A stretch of DNA of 64,000 bases from Myxococcota bacterium (GCA_965250285.1 OZ252299.1:1952001-2016000), one strand, 5' to 3'; positions 7,604-53,759 are shown, counted from the first letter of the stretch. Notes: a model not told the origin generated them from the letters alone. Program-made: numbers and translations.

Positions 7604-7631
7604 GCATCGGCAGATGTTCGGAACGCCTTGA
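7604..7631 (-). promoter_or_regulatory. Putative sigma-28-type promoter TCAA-N16-GCCGATGC
   Basis: Minus strand reads TCAA ggcgttccgaacatct GCCGATGC, ending 7 nt before the ATG at 7596. Confidence 0.6.
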
Positions 7632-7727
7632 GCGGGCGATGCCTTCGCCCGCGCCGCACTCGCGCTTGCTCCGTCTTCCACACGCCTCTATGTTCGTAAG
7701 GCCCCCTCCGCCACGCGGAGAAGTCCC

Positions 7728-9119
7728 CTGCGAAAACCCAACGTCCTCGTCGTCGACGACGAAGAGCTCTACCGGCGAGCGCTCCAGCGCATCCTCGCCC
7801 GAGTGGGATACGACGTCGTCTGTGCCCGAGATGCCCACGAGGCCCTCGGCATCGTCTCATCGGAGCGCGTCGATCTCGTGCTCTCCGACATCCAGATGCC
7901 CGGCCTGAATGGCATCGAGCTGGTCCGCCAGATCCGCGATCAGGAGCCCGATCTGCCCTGCATCGTGCTCACCGGCTACGGCAGCGCCGAGACGTCGATC
8001 GAAGCGCTGCAGGCCGGCGCCTTCTGGTACCTCGAAAAACCCTTCGAGCAGGATCGCCTCGACGTGATCCGCAAGCTCGTGAACCAGGCAATCGAGCATG
8101 GACGCCTGCGCAGCGAGAACCGGCGGCTGCACCGCGAGCTCCAATCGAAGTACAAGTTCGACAACATCGTCGGCAAGAGCGCGGCGCTGCAGCGCATGCT
8201 CGCCGTCGTCGAGCGCGTCGCGGACACCGACAGCACCGTGCTCGTGACTGGTGAGAGCGGTACGGGCAAGGAGCTCGTCGCCCAGGCGCTGCACTACAAC
8301 AGCCGGCGCGCCGAGGGGCCGCTGGTGACGGTCAACTGCGGCGCGATCCCCGAAGAGCTGCTCGAGAGCGAGCTGTTCGGCCACGTGAAGGGTGCATTCA
8401 CGAACGCCGTCGCCCACCGCGAAGGCCGCTTCACCCTGGCCGACGGCGGGACGATCTTCCTCGACGAGATCGGCGACATGTCGCCCACGCTCCAGGTCAA
8501 GCTGCTGCGTGTGCTGCAGGAGCGCACGTTCGAGCCCGTGGGTTCTTCGAAGACCCAGAACGTCGACGTGCGGGTCGTCGCGGCCACCCACCGCAACCTG
8601 CCCGAGCTGATTCAGGACGGCCGCTTCCGCGAAGACCTCTACTACCGCCTCAACGTGTTGCCGGTCGAGGTGCCCGCGCTACGCGAGCGACCCGAGGACG
8701 TACCGCTGCTCGTCCACCACTTCCTCGACCGGGCCCGCCAGGATCGCGGGGCCCGGGTCGACTCGATCAGTGACGCCGCCCTGCAGCGGCTCGTCGACTA
8801 CGAGTGGCCGGGCAACGTGCGCGAGCTCGAGAACGTGGTCGAGCGCCTGTCGGTGCTCGTGATCGATGGCGAGATCGGCGAAGAGGACCTGCCCGACGGC
8901 TTCCGCGCGACGCCGACCCCTCGCTCGACGTCGCCGCAGGTGCCGCCGACCGGGCTCGACTTCAACGAGACCGTCGCCGCCCTCGAACGCGATCTGCTCG
9001 CCCAGGCCCTCGCCCTCACCGGCTGGAACAAGAACCAGGCCGCCCAGCTCCTCGGGCTGAATCGAACGACCCTCATCGAGAAGATCAAGAAGCGCGGTCT
9101 CACGCCGCCCGAAGACTGA
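7728..9119 (+). CDS. Sigma-54-dependent response regulator (NtrC-family enhancer-binding protein); probable CTG start
   Basis: Receiver begins upstream of the ORF-track start (LRKPNVLVVDDEE); GESGTGKE, GAFTNA, FLDEIG, WPGNVRELEN, C-terminal Fis HTH. Confidence 0.92.
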   Translation: MRKPNVLVVDDEELYRRALQRILARVGYDVVCARDAHEALGIVSSERVDLVLSDIQMPGLNGIELVRQIRDQEPDLPCIVLTGYGSAETSIEALQAGAFWYLEKPFEQDRLDVIRKLVNQAIEHGRLRSENRRLHRELQSKYKFDNIVGKSAALQRMLAVVERVADTDSTVLVTGESGTGKELVAQALHYNSRRAEGPLVTVNCGAIPEELLESELFGHVKGAFTNAVAHREGRFTLADGGTIFLDEIGDMSPTLQVKLLRVLQERTFEPVGSSKTQNVDVRVVAATHRNLPELIQDGRFREDLYYRLNVLPVEVPALRERPEDVPLLVHHFLDRARQDRGARVDSISDAALQRLVDYEWPGNVRELENVVERLSVLVIDGEIGEEDLPDGFRATPTPRSTSPQVPPTGLDFNETVAALERDLLAQALALTGWNKNQAAQLLGLNRTTLIEKIKKRGLTPPED

Positions 9120-9151
9120 GCGCCGCCTCTCGGCGTCGCCGGAGTTCGCGA

Positions 9152-9628
9152 TTGTCGATTCAGGATCTCGGCAGCGTCGGTGAACTCGTCGCAGCGATCG
9201 CCACGATCGTGACGCTGGGTTATCTCGCGCTCCAGCTGCGCCAGAACACGCTCGCCGTCCGGGCCGGCAGCTCGATGTCGAACATGACCGAGAACAACGC
9301 GGTCACGGCGCTGATCGCCCAGGATCCCGACACCTGCGAGCTCTACTTCGCAGGCCTCGAAGGCACCCGCGATCTCGCGGACGAAGAGCGACGCCGCTTC
9401 GAGATGCTGGTCGCGATGTGGATGATGGTGCTGCAGCAGACGCGCGTCCTCGAGGCCGACGGCTTCTACGACCCCGACCTGGCCGAGGGGCGCCGGGCTC
9501 AGCTCGCCTGGATCACGCAGCAGCCCGGGTTTCGAACGTATTGGGACCGCTGGGGGCCGATGAACCCACCCGGCTTCAGAGGCGAGGTCGAAGCGTTGAT
9601 GGCGACCGCTTCGCGGCCGACCGACTGA
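9152..9628 (+). CDS. Hypothetical protein with N-terminal TM helix
   Basis: TTG at 9152 after GGAG; IQDLGSVGELVAAIATIVTLGYLALQLRQNT; coding-like codon usage. Confidence 0.7.
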   Translation: MSIQDLGSVGELVAAIATIVTLGYLALQLRQNTLAVRAGSSMSNMTENNAVTALIAQDPDTCELYFAGLEGTRDLADEERRRFEMLVAMWMMVLQQTRVLEADGFYDPDLAEGRRAQLAWITQQPGFRTYWDRWGPMNPPGFRGEVEALMATASRPTD

Positions 9629-9641
9629 CGGCGCCCCTTTC

Positions 9642-9679
9642 GCGCACCCCGACTTGTGATGTCGGGCGCTTCATTTTTT
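9642..9679 (+). terminator. Putative intrinsic terminator
   Basis: CCCGAC/GTCGGG stem (9648-9666) followed by cgcttcATTTTTT, just after the stop at 9628. Confidence 0.55.
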
Positions 9680-10005
9680 GCGACGACCTTCCGTTAAGCA
9701 GGTGGCCCGAGCGCGCTGAGACCGGCGCACGCGAGTCCGTCTCTCGCGCACGCCCAGTCGCGCGCGACCGAGCGACGATTTCGTAACACCGGCCGCAAAT
9801 TGGCGTCGGTTCGCTGACGATTCTCGTCCCCTCGCCCGAGTTGCCGCCAACCCGCGCGGCACCCCACAACCGCGCTCCGCAATTTTCGTCCGGCGCGTGG
9901 AACCGCGGTTTCCCTTTTGAAATCGCGAGGGTGGCTCCTTCTCGTCGGCGGTACGGCCGCACCTCCGACGCGATTCGCGCGCAGGCGAGAGCGCGCGCGC
10001 CCGGG

Positions 10006-10022
10006 TTGGCACGGACCCTGCT
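10006..10022 (+). promoter_or_regulatory. Sigma-54 (-24/-12) promoter of the fliA-like gene
   Basis: TTGGCACGGACCCTGCT fits TGGCAC-N5-YTGCW, about 100 nt upstream of the ATG. Confidence 0.75.
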
Positions 10023-52194: not shown

Positions 52195-52196
52195 CG

Positions 52197-52964
52197 ATGC
52201 GACGACCGTTCATCGCAGCGAACTGGAAGATGCACATGACGCTCGCCGAGGCCCTCGCCTTCGCCGAGCGGTTCAGCGCCCTGGTCGACGCCGAGATCGC
52301 GACCGACGTGGCGATCGCACCGCCGGCCGGGCTCATTGCCCCGCTCGCCCAGGCCCTCAAGGATCGGTCCGACATCGCGCTGGCTGCCCAGAACGTCCAC
52401 TGGGAACCGAGCGGCGCCTTCACGGGCGAGATGGCCCCCGAGCTGGCGGCCGACCTCGGCTGCCGCTGGGCCATCGTCGGCCACAGCGAGCGCCGCACCC
52501 TGTTCGGCGAGACCGACGCGCAGGTCGCTAGCAAGGTGCAGGCCGCGCGGCGCGCCGGGCTTGGCGTGATCCTCTGCGTCGGCGAGTCGCTCGAAGAGCG
52601 CGAGGCGGGCGAGACGACGCAGGTCGTCGCCCGCCAGATCGAGGCCGCCACCACCGGCCTCGACGCTGACGCGGCGGCCTCGTTGGTGATAGCCTACGAG
52701 CCCGTCTGGGCGATCGGAACCGGTCGCACCGCCACCCCCGACACGGCGCAAGAGGTTCACGCGTTCATCCGCGAGCGGATGGCCGACCGCCTCGGTCCCG
52801 TCGGTCGCGAGGTGCGAATCCAGTACGGGGGTTCGGTCAAGCCCGGCAATGCCGCGAGCCTGCTCGCCGAGCCCGACATCGACGGAGCCCTGGTCGGCGG
52901 CGCGAGCCTCGACGCCCAGGACTTCGCCAAGATCGTTCATGCCGGAGGAGAGACCGCCCGATGA
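52197..52964 (+). CDS. tpiA: Triosephosphate isomerase
   Basis: ANWKM, GHSERR, AYEPVWAIGTG, YGGSV, LVGGASL. Confidence 0.97.
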   Translation: MRRPFIAANWKMHMTLAEALAFAERFSALVDAEIATDVAIAPPAGLIAPLAQALKDRSDIALAAQNVHWEPSGAFTGEMAPELAADLGCRWAIVGHSERRTLFGETDAQVASKVQAARRAGLGVILCVGESLEEREAGETTQVVARQIEAATTGLDADAAASLVIAYEPVWAIGTGRTATPDTAQEVHAFIRERMADRLGPVGREVRIQYGGSVKPGNAASLLAEPDIDGALVGGASLDAQDFAKIVHAGGETAR

Positions 52965-52990
52965 GGCGCTCTTCTCTCTAGGAGTCCCAC

Positions 52991-53416
52991 GTGACCACGT
53001 TCCTCTACGTCCTTCACTTCATGGTCTGCTTCGTGCTGATCACCGTCGTGCTGCTGCAACGCGGCAAGGGCAGTGACCTCGGTGCGGCGCTCGGGGGCGG
53101 CGGCAGCAACACCGTCTTCGGCGCCCGCGGTGCGGCGAACTTCCTCACCCGCGTGACCACGGCCGCGGCGATCATCTTCATGGGCACGAGCCTGTCGCTG
53201 GCCTACTTCGCGACGGAGGACGCCGACGTGCGGCTGTTCGATGCGAGTGAGGTCGCCGAAGAGACCGCCGAAACGACTGCGGCCGCCGAAGCCGTGGCCG
53301 ACGAGGCCGCCGAAGCCGACTCGACCGGGCAGCTCGAAGAGATCGATCCCGCGGCGAACACGCTGCAGGAGATCCCGCCGCCCGAGCCCGCCGCGTCGGA
53401 AGAAGCCGAGCAGTAG
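52991..53416 (+). CDS. secG: Preprotein translocase subunit SecG
   Basis: VLLQRGKGSDLGAALGGG..TVFG..G..NFLTRVT; follows tpiA. Confidence 0.93.
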   Translation: MTTFLYVLHFMVCFVLITVVLLQRGKGSDLGAALGGGGSNTVFGARGAANFLTRVTTAAAIIFMGTSLSLAYFATEDADVRLFDASEVAEETAETTAAAEAVADEAAEADSTGQLEEIDPAANTLQEIPPPEPAASEEAEQ

Positions 53417-53599
53417 GCAAGAAACGCAGCCGCTGGATTTCGTGGCGAGGCCGGGCGGCTCGTGTAGAATCCGGCGCCCCGGACACCTCGGTGCCCTGGG
53501 AACCCTCTGCTCCCAGCGAGGTCGAGCCCGACTCGGCTTGGCTGGAACGCACCTCGGGCATCAGTCCGGGTGACGAGAGCGACAGCGCAGACACCGCGT

Positions 53600-53686
53600 G
53601 CGGCGGTGGCGGAATTGGTAGACGCGCCAGCTTGAGGGGCTGGTGGGGGCAACCCCGTGGAGGTTCAAATCCTCTCCGCCGCACCA
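53600..53686 (+). tRNA. tRNA-Leu (GAG)
   Basis: GCGGCGG acceptor, ccagc-TTGAGGG-gctgg anticodon arm, long variable arm, GTTCAAATC, CCA; typical position after secG. Confidence 0.97.
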
Positions 53687-53731
53687 GTCGGCGCGCTGTC
53701 GCCCCGCTCACGTTCGTGAGACGGCTTTCGA

Positions 53732-53759
53732 TCAAGTCCAGCTTCAGTTCGTCCGATCC
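53732..53759 (+). promoter_or_regulatory. Putative sigma-28-type promoter TCAA-N16-TCCGATCC
   Basis: TCAA gtccagcttcagttcg TCCGATCC, 88 nt before ATG 53847. Confidence 0.45.

Follow-up and report, generated by a model that had tools for sequence, protein, structure and literature searches.

A likely surface-motility and polarity regulon of a FliA/WhiG-family sigma factor in a class of Myxococcota

Introduction

The sigma-28 family, to which FliA and WhiG belong, has been described in several regulons, four of which come close to the one reported here: the enteric FliA/FlgM class 3 regulon; that of WhiG in Rubrobacter radiotolerans (PMC8325347), along with the WhiG regulons predicted for Actinomycetota (PMC13595943), whose targets include pili, cyclic di-GMP (c-di-GMP) enzymes (diguanylate cyclases/phosphodiesterases) and chemotaxis; that of Bdellovibrio bacteriovorus FliA, reported to be a global regulator with TTAAG-N16-CCGATA at 92 of 140 mapped promoters, many of them non-flagellar (PMC3627812), and with a Tad pilin promoter shown to be FliA-dependent in E. 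coli (PMC5430801); and that of Geobacter sulfurreducens, where fliA, as here, is predicted to stand under a sigma-54 promoter (PMC2725144). In this paper, we ask what a sigma factor of this family might do in a Myxococcota bacterium in which no flagellin gene was found. The object is a stretch of 64,000 nt (GCA_965250285.1 OZ252299.1:1952001-2016000; “the window” means this whole stretch), which holds one fliA-like gene and six intergenic copies of a promoter-like motif, TCAA-N16-(G/A/T)CCGA.

How does this locus compare? With the enteric regulon, it shares the sigma family, the -10 box and the spacer, but no flagellin, FlhA or FlgM was found in the genome, and TCAA is preferred over TAAA. Its motif fits the published WhiG consensus, XT(C/A)AX-N16-GCCGA (PMC13595943), and, read as a predicted promoter, it agrees with published sigma-28 consensus sequences in the form T(A/C)AA-N16-GCCGA; the phylum, however, is another one, the regulon would be about 10 times larger (130-150 promoters versus 12 confirmed ones; PMC8325347, PMC13595943), and its targets include MglBA, RomR-like and SgmX-like polarity genes and a second MreB. 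RsiG has been reported, in the accounts on which we drew, only from Actinomycetota, and the glycine 61 of WhiG, which makes room for c-di-GMP, is an asparagine here. Bdellovibrio is flagellated and its FliA drives flagellin, whereas here flagellin is absent or mostly under sigma-54-type sites; its type IVa pilA is described as not regulated by FliA, whereas here type IVa pilus operons carry the motif (PMC3627812, PMC5430801). In Geobacter, fliA lies in a flhA-flhF flagellar operon, flgM is present (in the order flgJ-flgM-hypothetical-flgK-flgL-csrA) and pilA is driven by sigma-54 (PMC2725144), whereas here fliA stands between a sigma-54 activator and a PP2C/romR-like pair, and three flagellar clusters of relatives have flgJ-flgN-flgK without flgM.

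That sigma-28 can act on pili and c-di-GMP genes is, therefore, already published for Rubrobacter, other Actinomycetota and Bdellovibrio, and because of these precedents, the surprise is limited. The present case departs from these in its lineage and its size, in having a polarity module and a second MreB among the predicted targets, and in a probable transfer of flagellin to sigma-54. Our search of the literature, to which most subscription papers were out of reach, gave no description of this regulon in this lineage, and the main text of a 2026 bioRxiv survey of Danish Myxococcota, in the part available, holds none of the words “FliA,” “sigma” or “flagell.”

The Motif across the Genome

The source genome (G000; G and L numbers are our working labels for genomes and loci) is a single contig, C1, of 6.25 Mb and 95% complete, of which the window is C1:1952001-2016000. 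We infer that it belongs to class UBA9160, which a 2026 preprint, in the part available, renames Vahlivitia and places in Myxococcota_A. Gene starts were taken from a home-made gene caller, which gave 5134 genes.

In the window, the pattern has six matches at spacer 16 and no others, with none at spacers 15, 17 and 18 and one at spacer 14, and 100 dinucleotide shuffles gave 1.20 +/- 1.15 sites, none of them reaching six. The sites lie at 7604..7631 (site 1, minus strand), 11792..11819 (site 2, minus), 11866..11893 (site 3, plus, back to back with site 2), 16959..16986 (site 4, plus), 47099..47126 (site 5, minus) and 53732..53759 (site 6, plus); all are intergenic and on the sense strand, at 7, 64, 69, 61, 59 and 87 nt, respectively, from the called start. 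A sequence-only reading of this DNA had named these six, and its coordinates, strands and upstream placement were exact in every case. It had also offered a weaker seventh site (50872..50899, minus); the site is present, but CCGC replaces CCGA, and at 11.9 bits, it falls below our working cut-off of 15 bits and is rejected as a member. Because the pattern was chosen only after its sites had been seen, the genome-wide test carries more weight.

That test came out clearly. The untrained pattern TCAA-N-CCGA, counted in intergenic DNA on the sense strand within 250 nt of a start, occurs 91 times at N17 and 28 times at N16, and 6-16 times at each of ten other spacers (range 12-23). Outside the window, 85 such sites show added conservation of a C before TCAA, a G after it, a G before CCGA and a T after it, and the genome consensus is CTCAAG-N15-GCCGAT. 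With an iterated position weight matrix (PWM) at 17 bits, TCAA-N-GCCGA was found upstream of genes 105 times at N16, 23 times at N15 and 7 times at N17, and 0-6 times at eleven other spacers, a control that is somewhat flattered since the matrix had been iterated on N15-17 sites. The six window sites score 16.7-21.2 bits (20.1, 16.7, 19.2, 21.2, 18.6 and 20.3 for sites 1 to 6). Allowing TAAA adds nine sites at N16 and two at N15, versus 0-3 at other spacers, and one of those added, of the form TAAAG, precedes pilB. Our working list holds 156 sites of at least 14.5 bits, 129 of them of at least 17 bits, spread along the whole chromosome, which is on the Bdellovibrio scale of about 100 or more FliA promoters, mostly non-flagellar. 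The motif is, thus, strongly enriched upstream of genes at one spacer, and the regulon that the sequence-only reading had glimpsed in six sites, all of them members, is about 20 times larger, at some 130-150 upstream sites.

Where the sites stand relative to start codons says something about what they are. At 19 of 152 sites, an in-frame ATG or GTG follows 6-7 nt behind the nine-column -10 box, versus a mean of 1.0 for each remaining offset between 0 and 16 (p = 6e-13; if a background of 2.5 is conservatively assumed, p = 1e-6). We infer from this spike, which is the pattern expected of leaderless transcripts, that +1 would lie some 7-8 nt behind the 8-bp -10 box. Site 1 belongs to this group: its ATG stands 6 nt behind the box, predicting a leaderless transcript, and the same offset is found in six of seven hand-picked relatives. 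The spike speaks, indirectly, for a core promoter. The FliA/WhiG sigma is the likely reader of the motif.

Conservation across the Class

The order activator, fliA, PP2C/romR-like, nadC, birA, coaX, a gene for a 355-aa protein and an mglA-like gene recurs in 80 fliA loci, the individual neighbors being found in 22 to 71 of them, limited by contig ends. The footprint counts exclude loci whose flank was too short or whose match began late. At 15 bits or more, the motif is kept before PP2C in 61 of 66 relatives and before the romR-like gene in 55 of 68; before the 355-aa gene, it is found in 19 of 43 at 15 bits and 29 of 43 at 12 bits; and on its side of the activator gene, site 1 keeps its position in 47 of 61. 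Before other genes of these loci, the motif is found in 0 of 54 (nadC), 0 of 51 (coaX), 0 of 63 (activator), 1 of 49 (birA) and 0 of 76 (fliA itself, which gives no sign of autoregulation); wrong spacers in the same loci gave 0-1 matches. Far from the window, a stand-alone second mreB carries the motif in 24 of 29 relatives.

Among 151 genomes of the class, this fliA is found in 143, pilM in 142 and flagellin in 60 (two weak matches), and the exact pattern at N15 has 2488 matches versus 542 for an in-frame N18 control. Four small genomes (G035, G055, G106 and G032) lack fliA, pilM and flagellin alike, and in these, motif versus control counts are 0 v 0, 3 v 2, 1 v 3 and 1 v 5, that is, no excess; G035 and G032, the two tested, also lack mglB and have a single mreB. 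A phylum-wide count of the exact pattern was set aside, being dominated by coding matches and having no wrong-spacer control, and the mglB footprint described below was used in its place.

Might the sites be no more than leftovers from a flagellar regulon of the past, or an artefact that codons produce in high-GC DNA? Counted over the whole genome, the exact pattern does show period-3 peaks from coding sequence, and about 40% of the relatives have flagellin. Yet the signal is restricted to intergenic, sense-strand, upstream positions at one spacer; orthologous promoters are conserved in both orders while the sequence of the spacer varies; the median pattern count against its control is much the same in genomes with flagellin (18 v 3) and without it (15 v 3); and the footprint already contradicts the idea, which we regard as very improbable.

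Two side observations concern the spread of the gene. In a sample of the phylum, 78 of 201 genomes have a FliA-like match, with identity of at most 52% outside the class; the closest of these (G151, 52%; L306:6550-7287) adjoins CRISPR Cmr genes in a 4.8-Mb genome where the motif has 21 exact matches. The fliA of the class, at 81-98% and with the same neighbors, is also found in records titled Spirochaetaceae, Spirochaetales, Opitutales and Gammaproteobacteria (L001, L005, L010 and others), whose titles are probably misassigned.

The Sigma Factor and Its Recognition Sequence

The gene itself (10095..10889, plus strand, 264 aa) beats the curated cut-offs of both models of its family (TIGR02479 FliA_WhiG, 278 versus 190 bits; NF005413 FliA, 253 versus 201 bits), and by Pfam, it has sigma regions 2, 3 and 4 without region 1.1, as FliA/WhiG proteins do. 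The fliA-like gene that the earlier reading had placed at 10125 is, thus, what it was taken to be, with a start at 10095 or 10125. No other FliA/WhiG gene was found in G000, the next best sigma coming at E 6e-18 among 20 sigma-70 region-2 matches, and the best match in a structural database is Streptomyces WhiG (240 bits), followed by E. coli FliA (191 bits). R74, D81, R84 and R91 of E. coli FliA, which have a role in recognition of the -10 element, align with R91, D98, R101 and R108 here.

The promoter of mglB ties this protein family to the motif. Scored with a matrix that treats TAAA as equal to TCAA, 27 of 29 relatives within the class have a site of at least 15 bits before mglB, 14 of these being TAAA-type, and in two other orders of the phylum, 0 of 40 mglB promoters have one. 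Because TCAA and the canonical TAAA interchange at an orthologous promoter, we take the motif to be a variant of the sigma-28 box. One genus, g8 (G041, G043, G061, G065, G075 and G102), has a more diverged fliA (74-77%), and there the exact TCAAG pattern hardly exceeds its control, if at all; the -35 preference may have shifted in this genus.

Could another protein read the motif (an extracytoplasmic function sigma, a group 2 or 3 sigma, or a transcription factor whose site is split), with FliA a bystander? The genome is not short of candidates, given its 20 region-2 matches; TCAA departs from the textbook TAAA; and four assemblies have the motif with no fliA match. We nevertheless judge this improbable, as the interchange at mglB and the TAAAG site at pilB speak for sigma-28, the GCCGAT box and the spacer fit its published consensus (PMC13595943, PMC3627812), the leaderless spike favors a core promoter over an operator, and the four small fliA-less genomes have no motif excess.

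Predicted Targets

What would these promoters drive? We scanned with Pfam 132 first genes outside the window (sites of at least 16.5 bits, from the 156 listed) and found 8 PilZ, 6 GGDEF, 2 EAL, 4 FHA and 4 DUF4388 proteins, 3 Ser/Thr kinases, 6 histidine kinases and 2 methyl-accepting chemotaxis proteins (MCPs), as well as MreB, DivIVA, a bactofilin, a PilT-family ATPase, an MshEN protein and a pilin. The set also takes in mglBA, an operon in which the gene for a 196-aa GTPase comes after that for a Roadblock protein; pilB-T-C is covered (pilB through its TAAAG site), an SgmX-like TPR gene has its own site, and one of the strongest sites stands before an 89-aa XRE-type helix-turn-helix (HTH) gene that heads the pilM-Q operon (C1:1920741-1921010, L110). 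A similar-looking 96-aa gene at 3326307-3326597 has a TAAA-type site. Two chemosensory clusters are covered, and one of them, with MCP, CheW, CheY, CheA and CheC, would be Dif-like by its gene order. The names mglB, sgmX and pilA rest on gene context and on model matches under the curated cut-offs (MglB 82 bits, SgmX 219 bits). The gliding machinery was sampled through one component, GltE, which had no match above cut-off, too little to call gliding absent.

The bias is strong: the motif precedes 9 of 18 PilZ and 7 of 14 GGDEF genes, versus 1 of 111 SDR dehydrogenases and 203 of all 5134 genes. It also separates two genes of one kind. There are two mreB genes, 69% identical (C1:3416239-3417276, L125, and 181009-182046), one in a housekeeping mreBCD operon, which has no site (5.1 bits), and the other a stand-alone paralogue with the motif. 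The paralogue is found class-wide, though not in G035, G032 or G007. By eye, from N-terminal sequences, a Pup-proteasome-like cluster (ligase, alpha and beta subunits, Pup, Dop, ATPase) was noted at C1:3418333-3425492.

The list does not stop at motility, however. It includes Lon, topoisomerase I, DnaJ-DnaK, RND efflux, a P450, an ammonium transporter, helicases and metabolic enzymes, and because of targets such as Lon, topoisomerase I, efflux and the metabolic enzymes, the regulon must be broader than motility; another 46 of the 132 have no Pfam family. This invites a different view of the same sigma and the same promoters, namely a general life-phase switch (dispersal, searching or non-growing, compare the attack phase of Bdellovibrio), of which pili and polarity would be only a part. 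Besides the housekeeping-like targets, with which DivIVA and the second MreB may be counted, the 130-150 promoters resemble the attack-phase set of Bdellovibrio (PMC3627812), and the sigma is unusually conserved (median identity of 85% versus 59-75% for neighboring genes); against it, pilM and mglB are lost along with the sigma, and no site precedes the housekeeping mreBCD operon. We consider a life-phase switch possible, though doubtful as it stands; it overlaps the explanation that we prefer, a surface-motility and polarity program, and sequence alone cannot separate the two.

Flagella, FlgM and Upstream Control

The sequence-only reading had seen no flagellar gene in the window, and the genome bears it out: profile searches of G000 returned no match for flagellin, FlhA or FlgM. 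For FlgM (PF04316), there was likewise none in 127 other genomes of its order, and a hidden Markov model built from the lineage reached no better than E 0.44 in G000. Some members of the order do have flagella, and in four of these, the single FliA is this one. Their flagellins, however, seem to be served otherwise: among 24 genes from 11 genomes, taken from the best flagellin matches, a sigma-54-type site precedes 14, so that every genome has one or more such genes, and the motif reaches 15 bits before 1. In seven flagellin regions of 20 kb, the PWM has only three matches in total; four of them were annotated in part and three confirmed as flagellar clusters, in which flgI-flgJ-flgN-flgK runs without flgM. 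In the flagellin leaders of relatives (L176-L195), AAGGA/GGA elements recur; csrA lies in the clusters and fliW was seen in one of them, which suggests CsrA-FliW control.

In a sister order, 22 of 23 genomes have a short FlgM-like gene (L196-L205, L308), which in most of the loci seen stands next to fliA, and 12 of these genomes have no flagellin match. Several flagellated genomes of that order have a second FliA paralogue (66% identical; L307:10167-10922), and the copy in G010 has a sigma-54-like site upstream. The idea that this second FliA is the flagellar sigma is unsupported, for in G010, it lies outside any flagellar cluster.

If FlgM is missing, what controls the sigma? A c-di-GMP switch of the WhiG-RsiG kind is unlikely, because Lys57, Gly61 and Arg62 of WhiG, its c-di-GMP contacts, correspond to Arg42, Asn46 and Arg47 here, and any side chain at position 61 would clash (PMC7005675). 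In a pattern search, the RsiG motif E-X3-S-X2-R-X3-Q/H-X3-D gave one single-motif match among the 5134 called proteins (219 aa, at 5403305 of G000). Upstream of fliA, there is a sigma-54-type -24/-12 site, TGGCAC-N5-CTGCT (10007..10022, plus), and beside it, a candidate activator of fliA, an NtrC-type gene (7803..9119, plus; receiver, AAA+ with a GAFTNA loop, Fis HTH), whose real start is somewhat upstream of 7803 and which is present in 71 of 80 fliA loci. Of 79 relatives, 30 have a strict sigma-54 pattern before fliA, none of six neighboring genes has one, and sigma-54 is present in G000.

Genes around the Sites in the Window

The gene behind site 1 (7225..7596, minus) encodes 123 aa with a Fis HTH only and is followed by a PAS histidine kinase (5524..7167, minus) and a single-domain receiver (5075..5446, minus). 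The sequence-only reading had called this a Fis-HTH/kinase/receiver unit, and the domains stand by Pfam, but the first gene is what is left of a sigma-54 activator of the receiver-AAA+-Fis type, its counterparts in L011, L013 and L018 having 477-507 aa with Sigma54_activat. Its decay can be followed stepwise, from full length (477-507 aa) through receiver and HTH without AAA+ (256 aa, L002) to HTH only (123-124 aa, here and in L001), with the predicted promoter and leaderless start retained. As the gene is full length in relatives, its predicted promoter suggests a feedback from sigma-28 to sigma-54 signaling.

Sites 2 and 3 point to a PP2C phosphatase (10999..11727, minus) and to a 616-aa protein with an N-terminal receiver domain (11963..13813, plus), which may be romR-like by resemblance. 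Behind site 4 lie a conserved 355-aa protein without a Pfam or NCBIfam family (17048..18115, plus), whose look-alikes in Acidobacteriota and Myxococcota fall into unnamed clusters only, one with HEAT repeats in 19% of its members; a protein with an N-terminal small-GTPase-like, mglA-like domain (18200..19408, plus); and a GAF-domain protein with a degenerate GGDEF-like end (19405..21669, plus). Site 5 stands before the gene of a single-domain PilZ protein (46701..47039, minus), and site 6 before that of a DUF2167 membrane protein (53847..54761, plus). Pfam upheld the earlier labels PP2C, PilZ, DUF2167 and Fis HTH; for romR-like and mglA-like, a receiver domain and a weak Arf match (E 2e-4) are what stands, and the names express resemblance only. 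By eye, the window also holds two Lon-like protease genes (36218-38647 and 61063-63549), and a third, motif-bearing Lon is at 145982 of G000.

Discussion

We think it quite probable that the 130-150 upstream sites are promoters of the single FliA/WhiG sigma, which would drive a program of surface motility and polarity instead of flagella. The sequence-only reading had proposed as much, seeing in the six sites a sigma-28 working on non-flagellar polarity, c-di-GMP and signaling genes, and it gains from the enrichment, the conservation, the interchange of TCAA and TAAA, the co-loss and the nature of the targets. As we picture it, the sigma would bind CTCAAG at -35 and GCCGAT at -10, with transcription starting some 7-8 nt behind the 8-bp -10 box. 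Its output would be type IV pili (the pilin unit, pilB-T-C, pilM-Q and a second PilT); the MglBA/RomR-like/SgmX-like polarity set with a dedicated second MreB, DivIVA, a bactofilin and two chemosensory clusters; and half of all PilZ and GGDEF genes, to which many unrelated genes would be added. Because no FlgM or RsiG-type partner was found, we propose that the sigma is controlled at the level of transcription, probably by sigma-54 and the adjacent NtrC-type activator. In the order of G000, the flagellum, where present, would mostly have moved to sigma-54, which is why the sigma-28 could be kept with or without flagella. All of this suggests a switch for swimming that was reassigned to surface life.

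Several things weigh against this reading, beginning with the flattered spacer control, the home-made source of the gene starts, the unrelated targets and those without a family. The co-loss genomes are small (2.2-3.4 Mb), lack many other things as well and stand for no more than two or three independent losses. Four genomes (G045, G088, G112 and G137) keep a motif excess with no fliA match, probably because of assembly gaps; conversely, in 14 of the 143 that have fliA, the exact TCAAG pattern shows no clear excess (below 5), two of them (G021 and G001) with a TAAA-type mglB site; and G007 retains fliA and pilM while mglB and the second mreB are missing. The strict sigma-54 site is present at only 30 of 79 fliA loci. 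Nor is flagellin fully uncoupled, since G060 has two extra flagellins with scores of 16.0 and 12.7 bits and, in the sister order, three of four tested flagellins carry TAAAG sites; because that order also keeps its FlgM-like genes, the uncoupling of sigma-28 from the flagellum is strongest in the order of G000 and not class-wide.

How far might one go? Across the class, sigma-28 may have been freed from the flagellum to become the master switch of a polarized, piliated state, in which MglAB-RomR-SgmX, the type IVa pilus, the MreB paralogue and half of the c-di-GMP network would be run as one unit through a loop from sigma-54 to sigma-28 to a sigma-54 activator; flagellin would have been handed to sigma-54, while flgM would have been deleted in one order and, in the other, stands beside fliA without flagellin. 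To this larger claim as a whole, we give even chances. In Myxococcus, the polarity module is mainly known as controlled post-translationally. If the larger claim is true, the class would have a transcription-level on/off switch for that module.

Two questions follow. What restrains a sigma-28 for which neither FlgM nor RsiG was found, and how would a FlgM-like protein be released, without flagellar export, in the 12 sister-order genomes that have one but no flagellin match? The motif offers a precise and testable regulon for a class that is widespread and uncultured; through co-regulation, some 46 proteins that match no Pfam family would be linked with pili and polarity, and it points to a way in which a flagellar sigma may outlive the flagellum.

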